In this document: positions 9,081 through 63,000 of the stretch, piece after piece
Numbering within the stretch: position 1 is the first letter of the stretch
Layout of the letters: every line of letters starts with the position of its first letter
Assembly (NCBI GenBank): GCA_963709585.1
Contig: CAVPXI010000015.1
Span: 183,122-247,121, forward strand
Direction of reading: 5' to 3'
Source: Candidatus Dormiibacterota bacterium
GTDB taxonomy: Bacteria; Chloroflexota; Dormibacteria; Aeolococcales; Aeolococcaceae
Length of the DNA: 64,000 nt
Notes under the pieces: model-generated
What the model was told of the DNA's origin: nothing
Seen by the model: the letters and a program-made list of their open reading frames with translations, nothing else
The model's database searches: none
Made by a program: the position numbers and the translations under genes

Positions 9081-10065
9081 TCAGTACGCGGCGAGCTCGC
9101 GGAGCTTCGCCTCGACCTTGTTTGGGGTGACCAGATAGAACTGCTCCAGCGGCGGCGAGAACGGCATCGCCGGAATCTCGGGACCGCCGAGCCGCATCAC
9201 CGGCGCGTCGAGACTGTCAAAGCAGTCCTCCGCGATGATCGCCGCAACCTCCGACGCGACGCTGACTGCGAGGTTCGCCTCCTGCACGATCAACACCTTG
9301 CCGCACTTGCTCGCACTTGCGACGATCGCCGCACGATCGAAGGGGCGCAGCGACCGGAGGTCGACGACCTCGCAGGAAAACCCATCTGCAGCAAGGCGAT
9401 CGACCGCTTCGAGCGAGGTGTGCACCATCATGCCGTAACTGAACACAGCGATGTCCCTACCCTCACGCACCACTCTCGCGCGATCGAGTGGCACGGTGTA
9501 CTCGCCGTCCGGCACCTCGCCCTTGACCGCACGGTAGGCACGTTTGTGCTCGAAATAGAGCACCGGGTCCGGGTCGCGCAGCGCCGAGATGATCATGCCC
9601 TTCGCGTCGTACGGAGTTGACGGCACGACCACGCGAAGTCCCGGGATGTGGGCGAAGATCGCTTCGATCGACTGGGAGTGGTACAGCGCGCCGTGCACTC
9701 CCCCGCCAAAGGGTGAGCGCACCACCATCGGCACGTTCCAGTCACCGTTGCTCCGGTAGCTGATTTTCGCCGCCTCGCTGATGATCTGATCGACCGCCGG
9801 CATGATGAAGTCCTGGAACTGGATCTCGGCGATCGGACGGAGTTCCGTTCATCGCCGCACCGATTGCGACGCCGACGATCAGTGATTCGGCGAGCGGGCT
9901 GTCGAGCACCCGCCATTCCCCGAACTCCTTCTGCAGCCCCTCGGTGACCCCGAACACGCCGCCCTTGGCTCCCACATCCTCGCCGAGGATCATGACGCGC
10001 TCGTCGCGCTGCATCTCCTCGCGGATGCCATCGCGGATCGCCTGGATGTACGTCTTCTCGGGCAC
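9081..10065 (-). CDS. 2-oxoacid dehydrogenase E1 beta; apparent 1-nt insertion at ~9843
   Basis: Two ORFs join (GEDVG.KGGVF ... HSQS). Removing one base restores MNGLRPIAEIQF. Confidence 0.9.
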
Positions 10066-10067
10066 GA

Positions 10068-11078
10068 TCAGTCCGCCATCTCCGTATACACGTGCAGCAT
10101 CGCTGTTTCGGGCGATGGCAGAGGCGACAGCTCCGCCTCGTCGGTGGCGCGGTCGAGCTCGAGGACCAGTTCGGCGCGCATCTCCTCGGCGTCACCCGGG
10201 TGCAGGACGCCGATCTCCTCGAGGGTCGCCTTGAAGCGGTGCAGGGAGTCCCGCTCCTTGTCCGCCTCGAGGTCCTCGGCGGTGCGGTAGCGACGCTGAT
10301 CGTCGTCCGAGCTGTGCGACGTCAGGCGCAGAACCTTCGCCTCGATGAGCGTCGGGCCGTCGCCGCGACGCGCGCGCTTCACCGCCTCGCGCGCGGTTCG
10401 GTAGCAGGCGATGGCATCGCAGCCGTCGACGATGACGCCGGGAATGCCGTATCCCTTCGCGCGATCGGCGACGTCCTCGGTGGGCATCTGCTTCTGCCAC
10501 GGCACGCTGATCGCGAAACCGTTGTTCTCGACGAGGAAGATCACCGCGAGCTTGTGAATCGCCGCGAAGTTCAGGGCCTCGTGAAAGTCACCCTCGCTGG
10601 TGCCACCCTCACCGATGGACGTGAAGGTCACCGCGTCCTCGCCGCGCATCCGCGACGCGAGCGCGATACCCGCTGCGTGGAGGAGTTGCGTCCCCACCGC
10701 CGATCCGGTGCTGATGATGTTCAGGCGCCGGCAGCCGTAGTGCGCCGGCATCTGCCGGCCGCCGCTGTTGGGATCGGCGGCCCGCTGGAGCACCGACAGG
10801 ATGTGATCCTTGGGGGTCATCCCGAGCACCAGCGTCAAGGCGAGATCGCGATAGTACGGGGCGATCCAGTCATAGGTGGGACGCAGGTTCATGCCAAAGG
10901 CGACTTGAACCGCTTCGTGGCCCTCTGCGGAGATCCAGAACGGCGCGCGTCCCTGGCGGTTCAGGACCCAGAGCCGCTCGTCGAGCAGCCGCGAGCGGAG
11001 CATGTGCCGGTACATGAGCCGGAGCGTCTCCGCGTCGAGGCCGGCGCGCGCCTTGGTTTCGGTCCGTGTCATCGCCAT
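10068..11078 (-). CDS. 2-oxoacid (branched-chain type) dehydrogenase E1 alpha
   Basis: GHEA, PYYRD, GRQMPAH, TPP motif GEGGTSEGDFHE..N, HSSDDD. Confidence 0.93.
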   Translation of the reverse strand: MAMTRTETKARAGLDAETLRLMYRHMLRSRLLDERLWVLNRQGRAPFWISAEGHEAVQVAFGMNLRPTYDWIAPYYRDLALTLVLGMTPKDHILSVLQRAADPNSGGRQMPAHYGCRRLNIISTGSAVGTQLLHAAGIALASRMRGEDAVTFTSIGEGGTSEGDFHEALNFAAIHKLAVIFLVENNGFAISVPWQKQMPTEDVADRAKGYGIPGVIVDGCDAIACYRTAREAVKRARRGDGPTLIEAKVLRLTSHSSDDDQRRYRTAEDLEADKERDSLHRFKATLEEIGVLHPGDAEEMRAELVLELDRATDEAELSPLPSPETAMLHVYTEMAD

Positions 11079-59459: not shown

Positions 59460-59846
59460 ATGGCCACCAAGACACTCACCCCCGAGGAGTTCGTCGACGC
59501 GCTCGAGAGCTGGACCGTCCTCGACGTCGTCAACGCCGTGAAGCTCATGGAGGACAAGCTGGGCATCAAGGCCGCCGCCCCGGTCGCCGCCGCCGCCGCC
59601 CCTTCGGCCGCAGCCGACGCCCCTGTTGAGGAGCAGACCGAGTTCTCGGTCATCCTCACCCATCCCGGCGACGCCAAGATCAACGTGATCAAGGCCGTTC
59701 GTGAGATCACGGGGCTCGGCCTCAAGGAGGCGAAGGATCTCGTCGACGCGGCTCCGAAGGCGATCCGCGAAGCGGTCCCGCGGGGCGAGGCCGACAGTGC
59801 CAAGGCGAAACTTGAAGAGGCAGGCGCCAGCGTCGAGATCAAGTAG
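59460..59846 (+). CDS. rplL: 50S ribosomal protein L7/L12
   Basis: Ala hinge, [23 protein letters not shown]. Confidence 0.98.
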
Positions 59847-60074
59847 CTCGGTCACAGCTGTACCTGAGCGTGGCGATTCCGGCTCTCTCGAGCCGTAGGC
59901 TTCAAATCGGGCACGTCCGGGTAGAGTAGAAGTCCCGTTCAAGCCCGGATCAGAGCGCGTCAAGCACTCCAACGGGTGGCAAAGGCCGCTTTCCGCCGGT
60001 TTTTGCTACGATACGGGATTGTGCCCGTCGCCGCGCGTGCCCGCGCGCATTCCTTCTCGGGGGAACTTTAGCAT

Positions 60075-63000
60075 ATGGTCCTTTCTCTTTCCACTACTGC
60101 CGCCCGCAAGTCGTACGGCCAGATTGCAGACAAGCTCGAGGTCGGAAACCTGATCCAGACCCAGCTTGATTCATTCGAGTGGTTCAAGAGAGAAGGTCTC
60201 CGGGAGCTGTTCAACGAGCTCAACCCGATCACGGACTACACCGGAAAGAACTACGAGTTGCGGTTCCTCGACTACGAATTTGGCGAGCCCAAATACGACG
60301 AAGAGGATTGCCGCCAGCGGGATATGACCTTCTCTGCTCCGCTCCGGATCAATACCCGGCTGCACATCAAGACCGGCGAGAACGCCGGCGAGATCAAGGA
60401 GGCCGAGGTCTTCATGGGCGACTTCGCGATGATGACCGCCGAGGGGACGTTCATCGTGAATGGCACCGAGCGCGTCGTCGTGTCGCAGCTGGTCCGCTCC
60501 CCAGGCGTGTACTTCACCGACACCGAGGACCGCGCGACCGGCCGTCTGCTCTACGCGGCCAAGCTGATCCCCAACCGCGGCGCCTGGCTCGAGGTCGAGA
60601 CGTCGAGCAAGGACGTGCTCACCGTCAAGATCGATCGCAAGCGCAAGGTCCCGGTCACCACGCTCGTGCGCGCCATCGGCTACGCGAGCAATGACGACAT
60701 TCGCGCCTTCTTCGCGGACGTCGACCTGGACCCGGAGCACCAGTACATCGCCGCGACGCTCGAGAAGGACGGCAGCACGACCGTCGAGGAGGCGCTCGTC
60801 GAGCTGTACCGCAAGATCCGCCCGGGCGATCCGCCCACGGTGGAGAATGCGCGCAACCTGCTCAACTCGCTCTTCTTCAACGCACGCCGCTTCGATCTCT
60901 CCAAGGTCGGCCGGTTCAAGCTCGACAAGAACCTCGGCATCAGTGAGGAAGAGGCGCGCGAGCGCGCGTGGGACAAGGATCGCCGGGTCCTCGACAACCA
61001 GGACTTCGTGTCGATCATCCGCAAGGTCATCCAGCTCAACAACGGCCACGGTGAGGCGGACGACATCGACCACCTCGGCAACCGCCGCGTGCGCGCCGTC
61101 GGTGAGCTGCTCCAGAACCAGTTCCGCATGGGACTGATCCGCATGGAGCGGATCATCAAGGAGCGCATGACCATCAGCAACTCGGGGACGATCACCTCCG
61201 CGAGCCTGATCAACGCACGGCCCGTGGTCGCCGCGATCAAGGAGTTCTTCGGGTCCAGCCAGCTGTCGCAGTTCATGGACCAGACCAACCCGCTGGCGGA
61301 GCTGACTCACAAGCGTCGCTTGTCGGCACTCGGACCAGGCGGACTCTCGCGCGAACGCGCAGGGTTCGATGTGCGCGACGTGCACCAGAGCCACTATGGC
61401 CGCATCTGCCCGATCGAGACGCCGGAAGGCCCGAACATCGGCCTGATCGGTTCGCTCGCCACCTTCGCACGCGTGAACGAGTTCGGCTTCATCGAGACGC
61501 CGTTCCGCCGCGTGTACAAGGACGAGAAGGGCACGCCCTGGGTCAGCGACGAGATCGTCTTCCTGTCCGCCGACGAGGAGGACAAATACACGGTGGCCCA
61601 GGCCAACGCGCCCGTCGACGAGGCGGGTCACTTCGCGGTGGCGCACGTCGCCTGCCGCACACGCCATACCTTCAAGGACCTGCCCATCGGTGTCGTCGAT
61701 TACATGGACGTTTCACCGAAGCAGATCGTCAGCGTCGCCACCGCCTTGATCCCGTTCCTCGAGCACGACGACGCAAACCGCGCGCTCATGGGATCGAACA
61801 TGCAGAAGCAGGCGGTCCCGCTGCTGGTCACCAAGTCGCCGATCGTCGGCACCGGCATGGAGATCCACGCGGCTCGCAACTCGGGCGAGATGGTCCTGGC
61901 ACGCAAACCGGGAACCGTGGTCGGGGTCGCGTGGCCGGAGCCGGCCGACAACGACCGCTCGGTCGAGAAGATTCGCAGCGGACAGGACAGCGGGATCGGC
62001 ATCCTGCTGCGTCCCGACGATGGTGGCCCGGACCAGTGGTACGGGGTCCACAAGTTCGTGCGCAGCAACCAGGGAACCTGCCTTTCGCAGCGCATCACCG
62101 TCTTCAGCGGCACCCGCGTCGCCGCCGGCGATGTGCTCGCCGACGGTCCATCGACTGATGGCGGCGAGCTCGCGCTCGGCCGGAACCTGCTGGTCGCCTT
62201 CATGCCCTGGGAGGGCTACAACTTCGAGGACGCGATCCTCATCAGCGAATCGGTCGTGCGCCAGGACACGTACACCTCGATCCACATCGAGGAGTTCGAG
62301 ATCGAGGCCCGCGACACCAAACTCGGTGCCGAGGAGATCACCCGCGATCTTCCCAACATCAACGAGGAATCGCTGAAGAACCTCAACGAGCGCGGCATCA
62401 TCTACGTCGGCGCCGAGGTACATCCCGGTGACATCCTCGTTGGCAAGATCACGCCCAAGGGTGAATCCGAGCTGTCCGCGGAGGAGCGCCTCTTGCGCGC
62501 CATCTTCGGTGAGAAGGCACGTGAGGTTCGCAACTCATCGCTGCGCGTCCCGCACGGCGAGCGCGGCATCGTCGTGGACGTCAAGGTGTTCAGCCGCGAG
62601 AGCAACCACGAGCTGCCTCCGGGCGTCAACGAGCTGGTTCGCGTCTACGTCGCGCAGAAGCGAAAGATCGCCCAGGGCGACAAGATGGCAGGCCGCCACG
62701 GCAACAAGGGCGTCGTCGCCCGAATCATGCCCATCGAGGACATGCCGTACCTGCCGGACGGCACCCCGGTCGAGATCGTGCTCAACCCGCTCGGTGTGCC
62801 GAGCCGCATGAACCTCGGCCAGGTGCTGGAAACGCACCTCGGCTACGCCGCGCATGCACTCGGGCTCAAGGTCGCCTCACCGGTCTTCGACGGCGCCTCG
62901 GAGGAGCTGATCGAGAGCGAGCTGGCCCGCGCGGGACTGCCCAGCAGCGGCAAGGAGAAGCTCCGCGACGGACGCACGGGTGAGTTCTTCGACCGCGAGA

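Follow-up and report, generated by a model that had tools for sequence, protein, structure and literature searches.

Why do several highly conserved genes in the genome of an uncultured soil bacterium appear mutated or broken, and why do the lesions fall so often on the same five bases? This question is raised by a stretch of 64,000 nucleotides from Candidatus Dormiibacterota bacterium (G000:C15:183122-247121, hereafter the window, whose positions are used below). The genome, G000, is metagenome-assembled and comprises 3.52 Mb in 24 contigs with 66-67% G+C and a marker completeness of 88.8%, and near-identical DNA is found in public soil and rhizosphere metagenome runs. An earlier note on this DNA had claimed that the lesions sit on GACTC/GAGTC (GASTC) and are sequencing artefacts reporting a DNA modification. 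Our analysis makes it very probable that they are systematic consensus errors at GASTC of a long-read, most likely native Oxford Nanopore, assembly, most likely caused by base modification at this motif.

We aligned the window to the syntenic DNA of eleven congeners and checked the gene names by Pfam, which confirmed SecA, S9, TruA, EF-G, RpoB, an IMPDH-like protein, a transketolase-type E1-beta, a GGDEF-EAL protein, S7 and S3. Before counting, the congeners were grouped by contig number into few-contig (2-20) and many-contig (50-270) assemblies. Kinship among them makes the counts non-independent, so that pooled p-values overstate the significance.

Lesions at GASTC in conserved genes

All substitution lesions are G>A changes at the G of the GA in GASTC, or the complementary C>T. 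In rpoB (plus strand), codon 369 reads Asn where 8 of 11 relatives have Asp (61179-61183; AACTC versus GACTC in 8/11), codon 587 reads Lys where all 11 have Glu (61833-61837; AAGTC versus GAGTC or GAATC), and codon 820 reads Asn versus Asp in 10/11 (62532-62536; AACTC versus GACTC in 10/11). The minus-strand genes are affected in the same way, and the DEVD of SecA becomes DEVN at codon 276 (29111-29115; Asp in 8/9 relatives, GAGTT versus GAGTC in 7/10). EF-G codon 578 turns YHDVDS into YHDVNS (55944-55948; Asp in 7/9, GAGTT versus GAGTC in 7/9), while Asn replaces Asp in S9 codon 110 (36697-36701; Asp in 10/10, GAGTT versus GAGTC in 8/10) and in TruA codon 70 (38137-38141; Asp in 9/10, GAGTT versus GAGTC in 5/10). 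The codon alignment of the IMPDH-like gene (plus strand) gives Lys at codon 355 versus Glu in 5/5 relatives (16445-16449; AAGTC versus GAGTC or GAGTT). The relatives which share a lesion Asn are all few-contig assemblies.

At least four motif lesions were added to those already described. One is SecA E600K (28139-28143, minus strand), where codon 600 reads Lys versus Glu in 9/10 relatives and GACTT stands for GACTC of 8/10. The other three, recorded without gene name or strand, are AACTC versus GACTC in 3/4 relatives at 8952-8956, GACTT versus GACTC in 5/5 at 14355-14359, and AACTC versus GACTC in 5/10 (3/5 many-contig) at 41497-41501.

Coding frameshifts make up the second class. The gene of E1-beta (PF02779/PF02780) is shifted by a one-base insertion that turns GAGTC into GAGTTC (9840-9845, minus strand); 4/4 relatives are one base shorter there, and with the frame restored the protein reads ...AAMNGLRPIAEIQFQDF, as in the relatives. 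The same insertion splits the GGDEF-EAL gene (24252-24257, plus strand), which is unbroken in the relatives and reads ...EGMSLRVDASIGIALAPDHG within one frame. In rpsG the conserved C-terminus of S7 is destroyed by GAACTC, a one-base insertion in GACTC (57712-57717, minus strand), which is also present in the few-contig congener G008. The tail of rpsC carries a GAGTC with one extra base directly beside it (49884-49889, minus strand); this base, 49889, shifts the S3 tail into the L16 frame and creates a false S3-L16 open reading frame (ORF) of 485 aa (KH_2, S3_C; 49313-50770, minus strand). The insertions at the motif duplicate A/T. The remaining indel events relative to the congeners lie at gene ends, in intergenic DNA or in poorly conserved stretches.

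The letters described by the earlier note were found at all 16 of its coordinates. All four of its frameshifts are present in the assembly, three as GAGTC>GAGTTC (the same event as GACTC>GAACTC) and one directly beside GAGTC. As to lesions of conserved residues and reading frames at GASTC, 12 of its 13 sites hold; the thirteenth, RpoB codon 602 (61878-61882, plus strand, AACTC), is not a lesion. AAC is read there in 11/11 relatives and A in 11/11 genus-level metagenome contigs, while 12/12 more distant contigs have GAC, and this Asn is a true residue of the genus. The broader claim that every lesion lies on the motif stands for the coding frameshifts of the window (4/4) and goes further than the substitutions can show.

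Motif specificity in the window and the whole genome

For the window, we kept only positions with agreement among three or more many-contig congeners and counted G>A changes (C>T on the other strand) private to G000 by five-base context. It turned out that GACTC ranks first of 254 contexts, with 8/28 changed versus a background of 233/16391 (1.4%; p=4e-9). GAGTC follows with 2/25. The error motif is GASTC, not GANTC, because GAATC (0/39) and GATTC (0/35) showed no such change (GAWTC 0/74). The two motif strands are unequally affected, with a rate of GACTC>AACTC about threefold that of GAGTC>AAGTC (8/28 versus 2/25), which qualifies the earlier reading. When unanimity was demanded among five few-contig relatives, which have these errors too, the signal was hidden, and many-contig references were used instead.

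Three tests that need no reference genome extended the observation to the whole genome and agreed with it. By a third-order expectation, the observed/expected ratio was 0.75 for GASTC, 1.29 for AACTC/GAGTT and 1.25 for AAGTC/GACTT, while GAWTC and its derivatives stayed at about 1.0. In the second test, the coding phase of this G+C-rich genome was read from the G+C content of third codon positions (GC3), and a +1 shift was scored across each hexamer. Among 3279 hexamers, GAACTC came first (29/243, p=9e-11) and GAGTTC second (25/266, p=2e-7) against a background of 2.8%, with CGAACT and CGAGTT, which overlap them, in the next places. This test is informative for only 509 of the 2519 GAACTC/GAGTTC hexamers, and 54 of the 509 are shifted. 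The third test counted A for G at positions that are third by GC3 phase: ACTC (103/450) and AGTC (68/414) were the top two of 62 A-initial 4-mers, whose mean is 8.5%. These 62 contexts were used since a version over all 256 downstream 4-mers was confounded by natural dinucleotide preferences, with T-initial contexts highest.

Candidates for further motifs were rejected. GATGC (6/110, p=0.005 uncorrected), GCTCG (8/233) and CTCGAG>CTCAAG at 57644 fail correction for 254 tests, and the G>A excess at GATGC may be a weaker second modification motif or chance. The A at 57644 is also present in many-contig G001. There is no strict flank requirement either, and all four bases are seen on either side of shifted sites.

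Dependence on assembly contiguity

The congeners differ sharply by assembly class. Counting changes at the ends of the motif (end-changes) at 31 consensus GASTC sites, we obtained 11/31 for G000 (24 contigs), 5/31 each for G008 (5 contigs) and G011 (20 contigs), 4/30 for G002 (20 contigs), 4/26 for G004 (9 contigs), 1/30 for G006 (2 contigs) and 0/2 for G016 (20 contigs). The five assemblies of 50-270 contigs had no end-change at their GASTC sites (0/17, 0/23, 0/21, 0/21, 0/21). Pooled, the difference between few- and many-contig assemblies is 30/181 versus 0/103 (Fisher p=8e-7), or 19/150 versus 0/103 without G000 (p=4e-5).

The few-contig assemblies are altered at partly different GASTC sites. 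GAGTTC/GAACTC insertions recur among them, in G004 (2), G008 (4, one in common with G000) and G011 (3), whereas in the many-contig genomes only a single case is seen, and there the motif is missing from every relative. A part of 400 kb of the 2-contig G006 gave a GASTC ratio of 0.76, phase shifts at 8/49 hexamers versus 5.3% (p=0.004) and AGTC 8/47. The same amount of the many-contig G014 showed no genome-wide anomaly (GASTC 0.93, 0/62 phase shifts, ACTC 3/64). The lesions thus follow assembly contiguity, not phylogeny, and the observation extends genome-wide and genus-wide.

Independent DNA

Contigs (Logan) of four public soil runs from four studies were compared with positions 44001-64000, where two of the motif frameshifts can be read. 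Base 57713, the insertion in rpsG, is left out in all covering depth of the four runs (17.1/17.1, 32.6/32.6, 8.65/8.65 and 6.55/6.55). Base 49889, the extra base in rpsC, is left out in all covering depth of runs X3, X7 and X9, and X1 has no cover there. Stretches of 1294, 690 and 420 bases in X1 are identical to the window; X1 therefore contains the G000 strain or a very near one.

For the substitutions, a metagenome scan with a 29-base rpoB stretch conserved in the genus found 25 contigs. Of these, 23/24 have G at 61179, 23/23 have it at 61833 and 22/22 at 62532. AACTC occurs at 61179 in 0/24, and the lone A belongs to a 71%-identical, doubtfully aligned contig. The variant letters of G000 are missing from these independent contigs.

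Candidate methyltransferases

The DNA methyltransferase candidates of G000 comprise two PF01555 proteins, encoded 2 kb apart on contig C7, one PF02384 and one PF00145, and PF02086 was not found in this genome. P0001 (G000:C7:583009-584193) is a 395-aa ORF with 144 bits to PF01555 and the motif DPPF; P0002 (G000:C7:586185-586979) has 264 aa, 95.5 bits and the motif DPAY. Both lie above the gathering score. A D-P-P-Y/F motif marks N6-adenine enzymes. The CcrM equivalog of NCBIfam, NF050803, has a cut-off of 830 bits, which both proteins missed (P0001 73.3, P0002 76.9). The match of P0002 to CcrM (E 7e-17) spans residues 16-153 of the latter, in its N-terminal part for catalysis and recognition. 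The search for a GASTC/GANTC methyltransferase recommended earlier thus yielded two PF01555 candidates and no CcrM equivalog, and the specificity of such enzymes is not readable from sequence.

P0001 and P0002 are each present and syntenic in 39 of the 40 congeners searched, and the one miss is a 61%-complete genome. The two genes are themselves split in several few-contig congeners; that of P0002 falls into two frames in G006:C1, G008:C1 and G049:C5, which fits the same class of assembly errors. Outside the genus their distributions differ. P0001 orthologs, 55-65% identical, occur across Solirubrobacterales, Gaiellales, Microbacteriaceae and Chloroflexota, while P0002 was found in 2/5 genomes of other genera in the family and in 0/145 genomes of other families in a phylum sample. 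Two single-contig Solirubrobacterales chromosomes that carry no footprint (see below) have a P0001 ortholog, and their P0002 matches are weak and C-terminal only. P0001 as the GASTC enzyme is weakened because these two chromosomes have its ortholog without the footprint, and P0002 is weakly favoured; this is circumstantial, rests on two genomes, and the missing footprint may have other causes. The PF02384 (2/5) and PF00145 (4/5) proteins were set aside, as they are not in all five footprint-bearing congeners, whose genomes are 72-87% complete, so that absence is not proven.

The first 90-120 or so residues of the P0001 ORF are Arg-rich, many orthologs have an in-frame TGA there, and several matches start at about residue 90; the true start is probably downstream of the ORF start. 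Neighbours of the two genes encode an acyl-CoA dehydrogenase, a class I S-adenosylmethionine (SAM) methyltransferase (Methyltransf_11) and an MMPL transporter. An ORF upstream of P0002 (L010:590-1375, 261 aa, plus strand) was considered as a coupled partner and rejected as a shadow, with a G+C of 0.82/0.53/0.69 by codon position; the opposite-strand gene (L010:566-1423, minus strand), directly upstream of P0002 and between P0001 and P0002, encodes a 285-aa class I SAM methyltransferase, PF08241.

PleI, MlyI and BstNBI are type IIS systems of GAGTC, and GAGTC/GACTC equals GASTC. The earlier note had named methyltransferases of this type as makers of m6A in GASTC. The gene context gives no support for a PleI/MlyI/BstNBI-type restriction-modification label, although the recognition sequence may be a common one. 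In the ORFs adjoining either methyltransferase Pfam recognised neither a restriction enzyme nor any nuclease family, though an unrecognised nuclease may lie there, and both genes belong to the syntenic core of the congeners, which suits an orphan enzyme better than a mobile restriction-modification system. With two conserved PF01555 genes and no recognisable restriction enzyme adjoining, an orphan of the HinfI/CcrM class has at least as good a claim as an enzyme of the PleI/MlyI/BstNBI type.

Both candidates share PF01555 with the CcrM/M.HinfI class. They differ from it in that their identity to CcrM is low and P0002 is without the CcrM C-terminal domain, and in the portions of the literature available to us a GASTC-restricted orphan is not described. 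Compared with CcrM (GANTC), only the S subset is error-bearing here, a difference that concerns errors, not methylation itself. Narrowing of the central N is known from CcrM variants with GAWTC or GADTC, as described in the part of the report consulted (Hiraoka et al. 2022, PMC8919816). If P0002 has been narrowed to GASTC, it would correspond to the CcrM variants of SAR11 that are narrowed to GAWTC. According to the section of PMC6700114 seen, a GASTC specificity predicted in REBASE style can be mistaken.

Explanation of the lesions

The lesions are almost certainly not biological. Jointly they would disable S7, S3, EF-G, RpoB, S9 and the DEVD of SecA, which no living cell could bear. The artefact reading of the earlier note, consensus errors at GASTC that probably report a modification, is supported by our results; the platform and the modification themselves we infer. 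In native DNA, GASTC would be modified, most simply as N6-methyladenine (m6A) at the A of both strands (GA*STC), by one of the two beta-class PF01555 methyltransferases conserved across the genus. A shifted pore signal would then lead to the preceding G being called A (GACTC>AACTC; on the other strand GAGTC>GAGTT) or to an extra A/T being inserted (GACTC>GAACTC). If basecaller and polisher err on one strand, the consensus of a metagenome of modest depth may flip at about a quarter to a third of the motif sites.

Errors of this kind are known. In the portions available of two studies, native R10.4.1 reads show A/G and C/T ambiguities with the minimal shared motif RA/TY, which are gone with PCR-based (polymerase chain reaction) libraries (Lohde et al. 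2024, PMC11610573), and modification motifs were discovered from strand-specific G2A/C2T errors that native, not amplified, R10.4.1 reads contain (Liu et al. 2024, 'Hammerhead', PMC11610603). As far as these portions go, the likeness lies in G>A and C>T directly beside the modified base and in specificity for motif and organism, and GACTC>AACTC is an R-A ambiguity. The published cases differ in concerning isolates, mostly substitutions, and other motifs (e.g. RACG/CGTY, GATC). In the present case, that of an uncultured soil lineage with errors at GASTC, the insertions GACTC>GAACTC are as prominent as the substitutions, and the affected share is very high (about 11/31). GASTC was not found as an error motif among the matches listed in the literature searched, much of it seen in part and with the papers' supplements excluded, and the same search found no paper on methylation in the Dormibacterota lineage. 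The artefact kind, and the reading of a methylome from it, is already published; what is new is the instance only, namely GASTC, an uncultured Dormibacteria lineage and a candidate enzyme.

Several points weigh against this reading of the lesions. The public soil runs have no library on record and may represent other strains, and the metagenome rpoB contigs come from congeners (71-93% identity) rather than from this strain. In the 400 kb of G006, ACTC gave no excess in the third-position test (4/39), although AGTC did. The best solved relatives of P0001 and P0002 are M.RsrI and CcrM at E 1e-26 to 1e-17, from which the specificity cannot be read. As to the chemistry, a modified terminal C (4-methylcytosine or 5-methylcytosine) would leave an identical consensus pattern, read from the opposite strand, and consensus data cannot separate the two.

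The main rival is that basecaller or polisher err at this motif from the sequence context alone, without any DNA modification, which we regard as unlikely. All evidence for modification is indirect, and the slight preference for C before the motif at frameshifted sites (33/54 versus 196/455) is some context dependence. However, the two single-contig Solirubrobacterales chromosomes (400 kb each, 65-70% G+C) are without the GASTC signature: GASTC is at 0.95 and 0.93 of expectation, and the phase shifts at GAACTC/GAGTTC are 1/34 and 1/95. GASTC is therefore not error-prone in every long-read assembly. A link to PMC12313526, of which a part was seen, suggests that these chromosomes are nanopore-only assemblies polished with Medaka. 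The PCR and whole-genome amplification controls, in the available text of PMC11610573 and PMC11610603, also tie the error type to modification.

In another explanation the changes are truly genomic and come from motif-directed mutation in a lineage that decays or hypermutates, for example by deamination or by nicking at GAGTC with error-prone repair. Taken alone, the motif specificity is also what a site-directed lesion would give, and C>T in TC context resembles some deaminase signatures. We consider this highly improbable, for S7, S3, EF-G, RpoB, SecA and S9 would be inactivated together, and the changes track assembly contiguity rather than phylogeny and are missing from independent contigs. 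Other TC contexts are not raised (the GAATC and GATTC counts above), and deamination yields no one-base insertions. If genomic lesions were instead repaired at the RNA or translation level, by editing or programmed frameshifting, the fixed hexamer at the frameshifts would be expected, as programmed sites would have it. Yet many-contig congeners and public-run contigs have these genes without a break, the affected sites differ between close assemblies, and about a tenth of the testable GAACTC/GAGTTC hexamers (54/509) are affected genome-wide, in unrelated genes. This explanation is scarcely credible, and much less likely than an artefact, as the earlier note had judged; the unbroken genes of many-contig congeners and public-run contigs bear this out. 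A consensus merged from several strains, with the odd letters as minor alleles or chimeric joins, would agree with the strain-level redundancy in the bin (the repeat at the end of contig C16 described below; 62876-64000, 98.1%). But mixed strains would give synonymous, context-free differences, as in that repeat, not Asp>Asn at catalytic residues in one 5-mer, and we give this explanation very little weight.

Other observations in the window

The window part 62876-64000, which holds the rpoB 3' end and the rpoC 5' end, is repeated in the last 1128 bases of contig C16 at 98.1% identity, with 18 mismatches and one 3-base gap; the C16 copy has an AGC codon at 63459 that the window lacks. The repeat is either strain-level redundancy or an unresolved contig-end overlap. 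Extra AGC behind 63459 (rpoB end) is also found in X1, X3 and at least 9/10 relatives. In all four public runs a further G follows 59970, which lies upstream of rpoB and outside GASTC. These two are non-motif differences and may be real or other errors.

A 24-base stretch of G000 at 52416-52439 is missing from at least 70% of the aligned relatives and resembles an intergenic indel, and one contig of run X3 skips 52405-52444, with six other letters in between. The clusters rpsG-fusA (55592-58536, minus strand) and rpoB-rpoC (60075-64000, plus strand) are divergent and syntenic in the aligned congeners, a layout that differs from the common co-oriented order rpoBC-rpsL-rpsG-fusA.

Consequences for the lineage

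The broken or mutated essential genes should almost certainly be read as intact. Motif errors explain the false pseudogenes (S7, S3, E1-beta, GGDEF-EAL), the false S3-L16 fusion and the false catalytic-site 'mutations' in RpoB, EF-G and SecA. GASTC density is 1.23/kb in G000 versus 1.72/kb in the clean congener G014, so about 29% of the sites are lost. By a rough extrapolation from this density, not a count, G000 carries on the order of 1,500 substitutions; likewise roughly, scaling some 40 excess shifts among the 509 informative hexamers to 2519 gives about 200 insertions, again not counted. Errors in such numbers would explain a completeness of 88.8% in a genome of 24 contigs. Errors of the same kind occur in few-contig congeners at other sites. 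Phylogenies, ratios of nonsynonymous to synonymous substitution rates (dN/dS), pseudogene counts and pangenomes of the lineage will therefore carry a bias until the assemblies have been repolished, either with short reads or with a model that takes modifications into account.

In conclusion, the footprint allows both the methylome (GASTC) and the enzyme behind it to be predicted, in testable form, for a lineage without a cultured member. We tentatively suggest, at somewhat less than an even chance, that it reflects a genus-wide, probably family-restricted orphan epigenetic system, in which P0002, a short HinfI/CcrM-like enzyme of the beta class, would have narrowed from GANTC to GASTC. It would methylate nearly all GASTC sites of a genome, about 6000 in number, and might serve in regulation.

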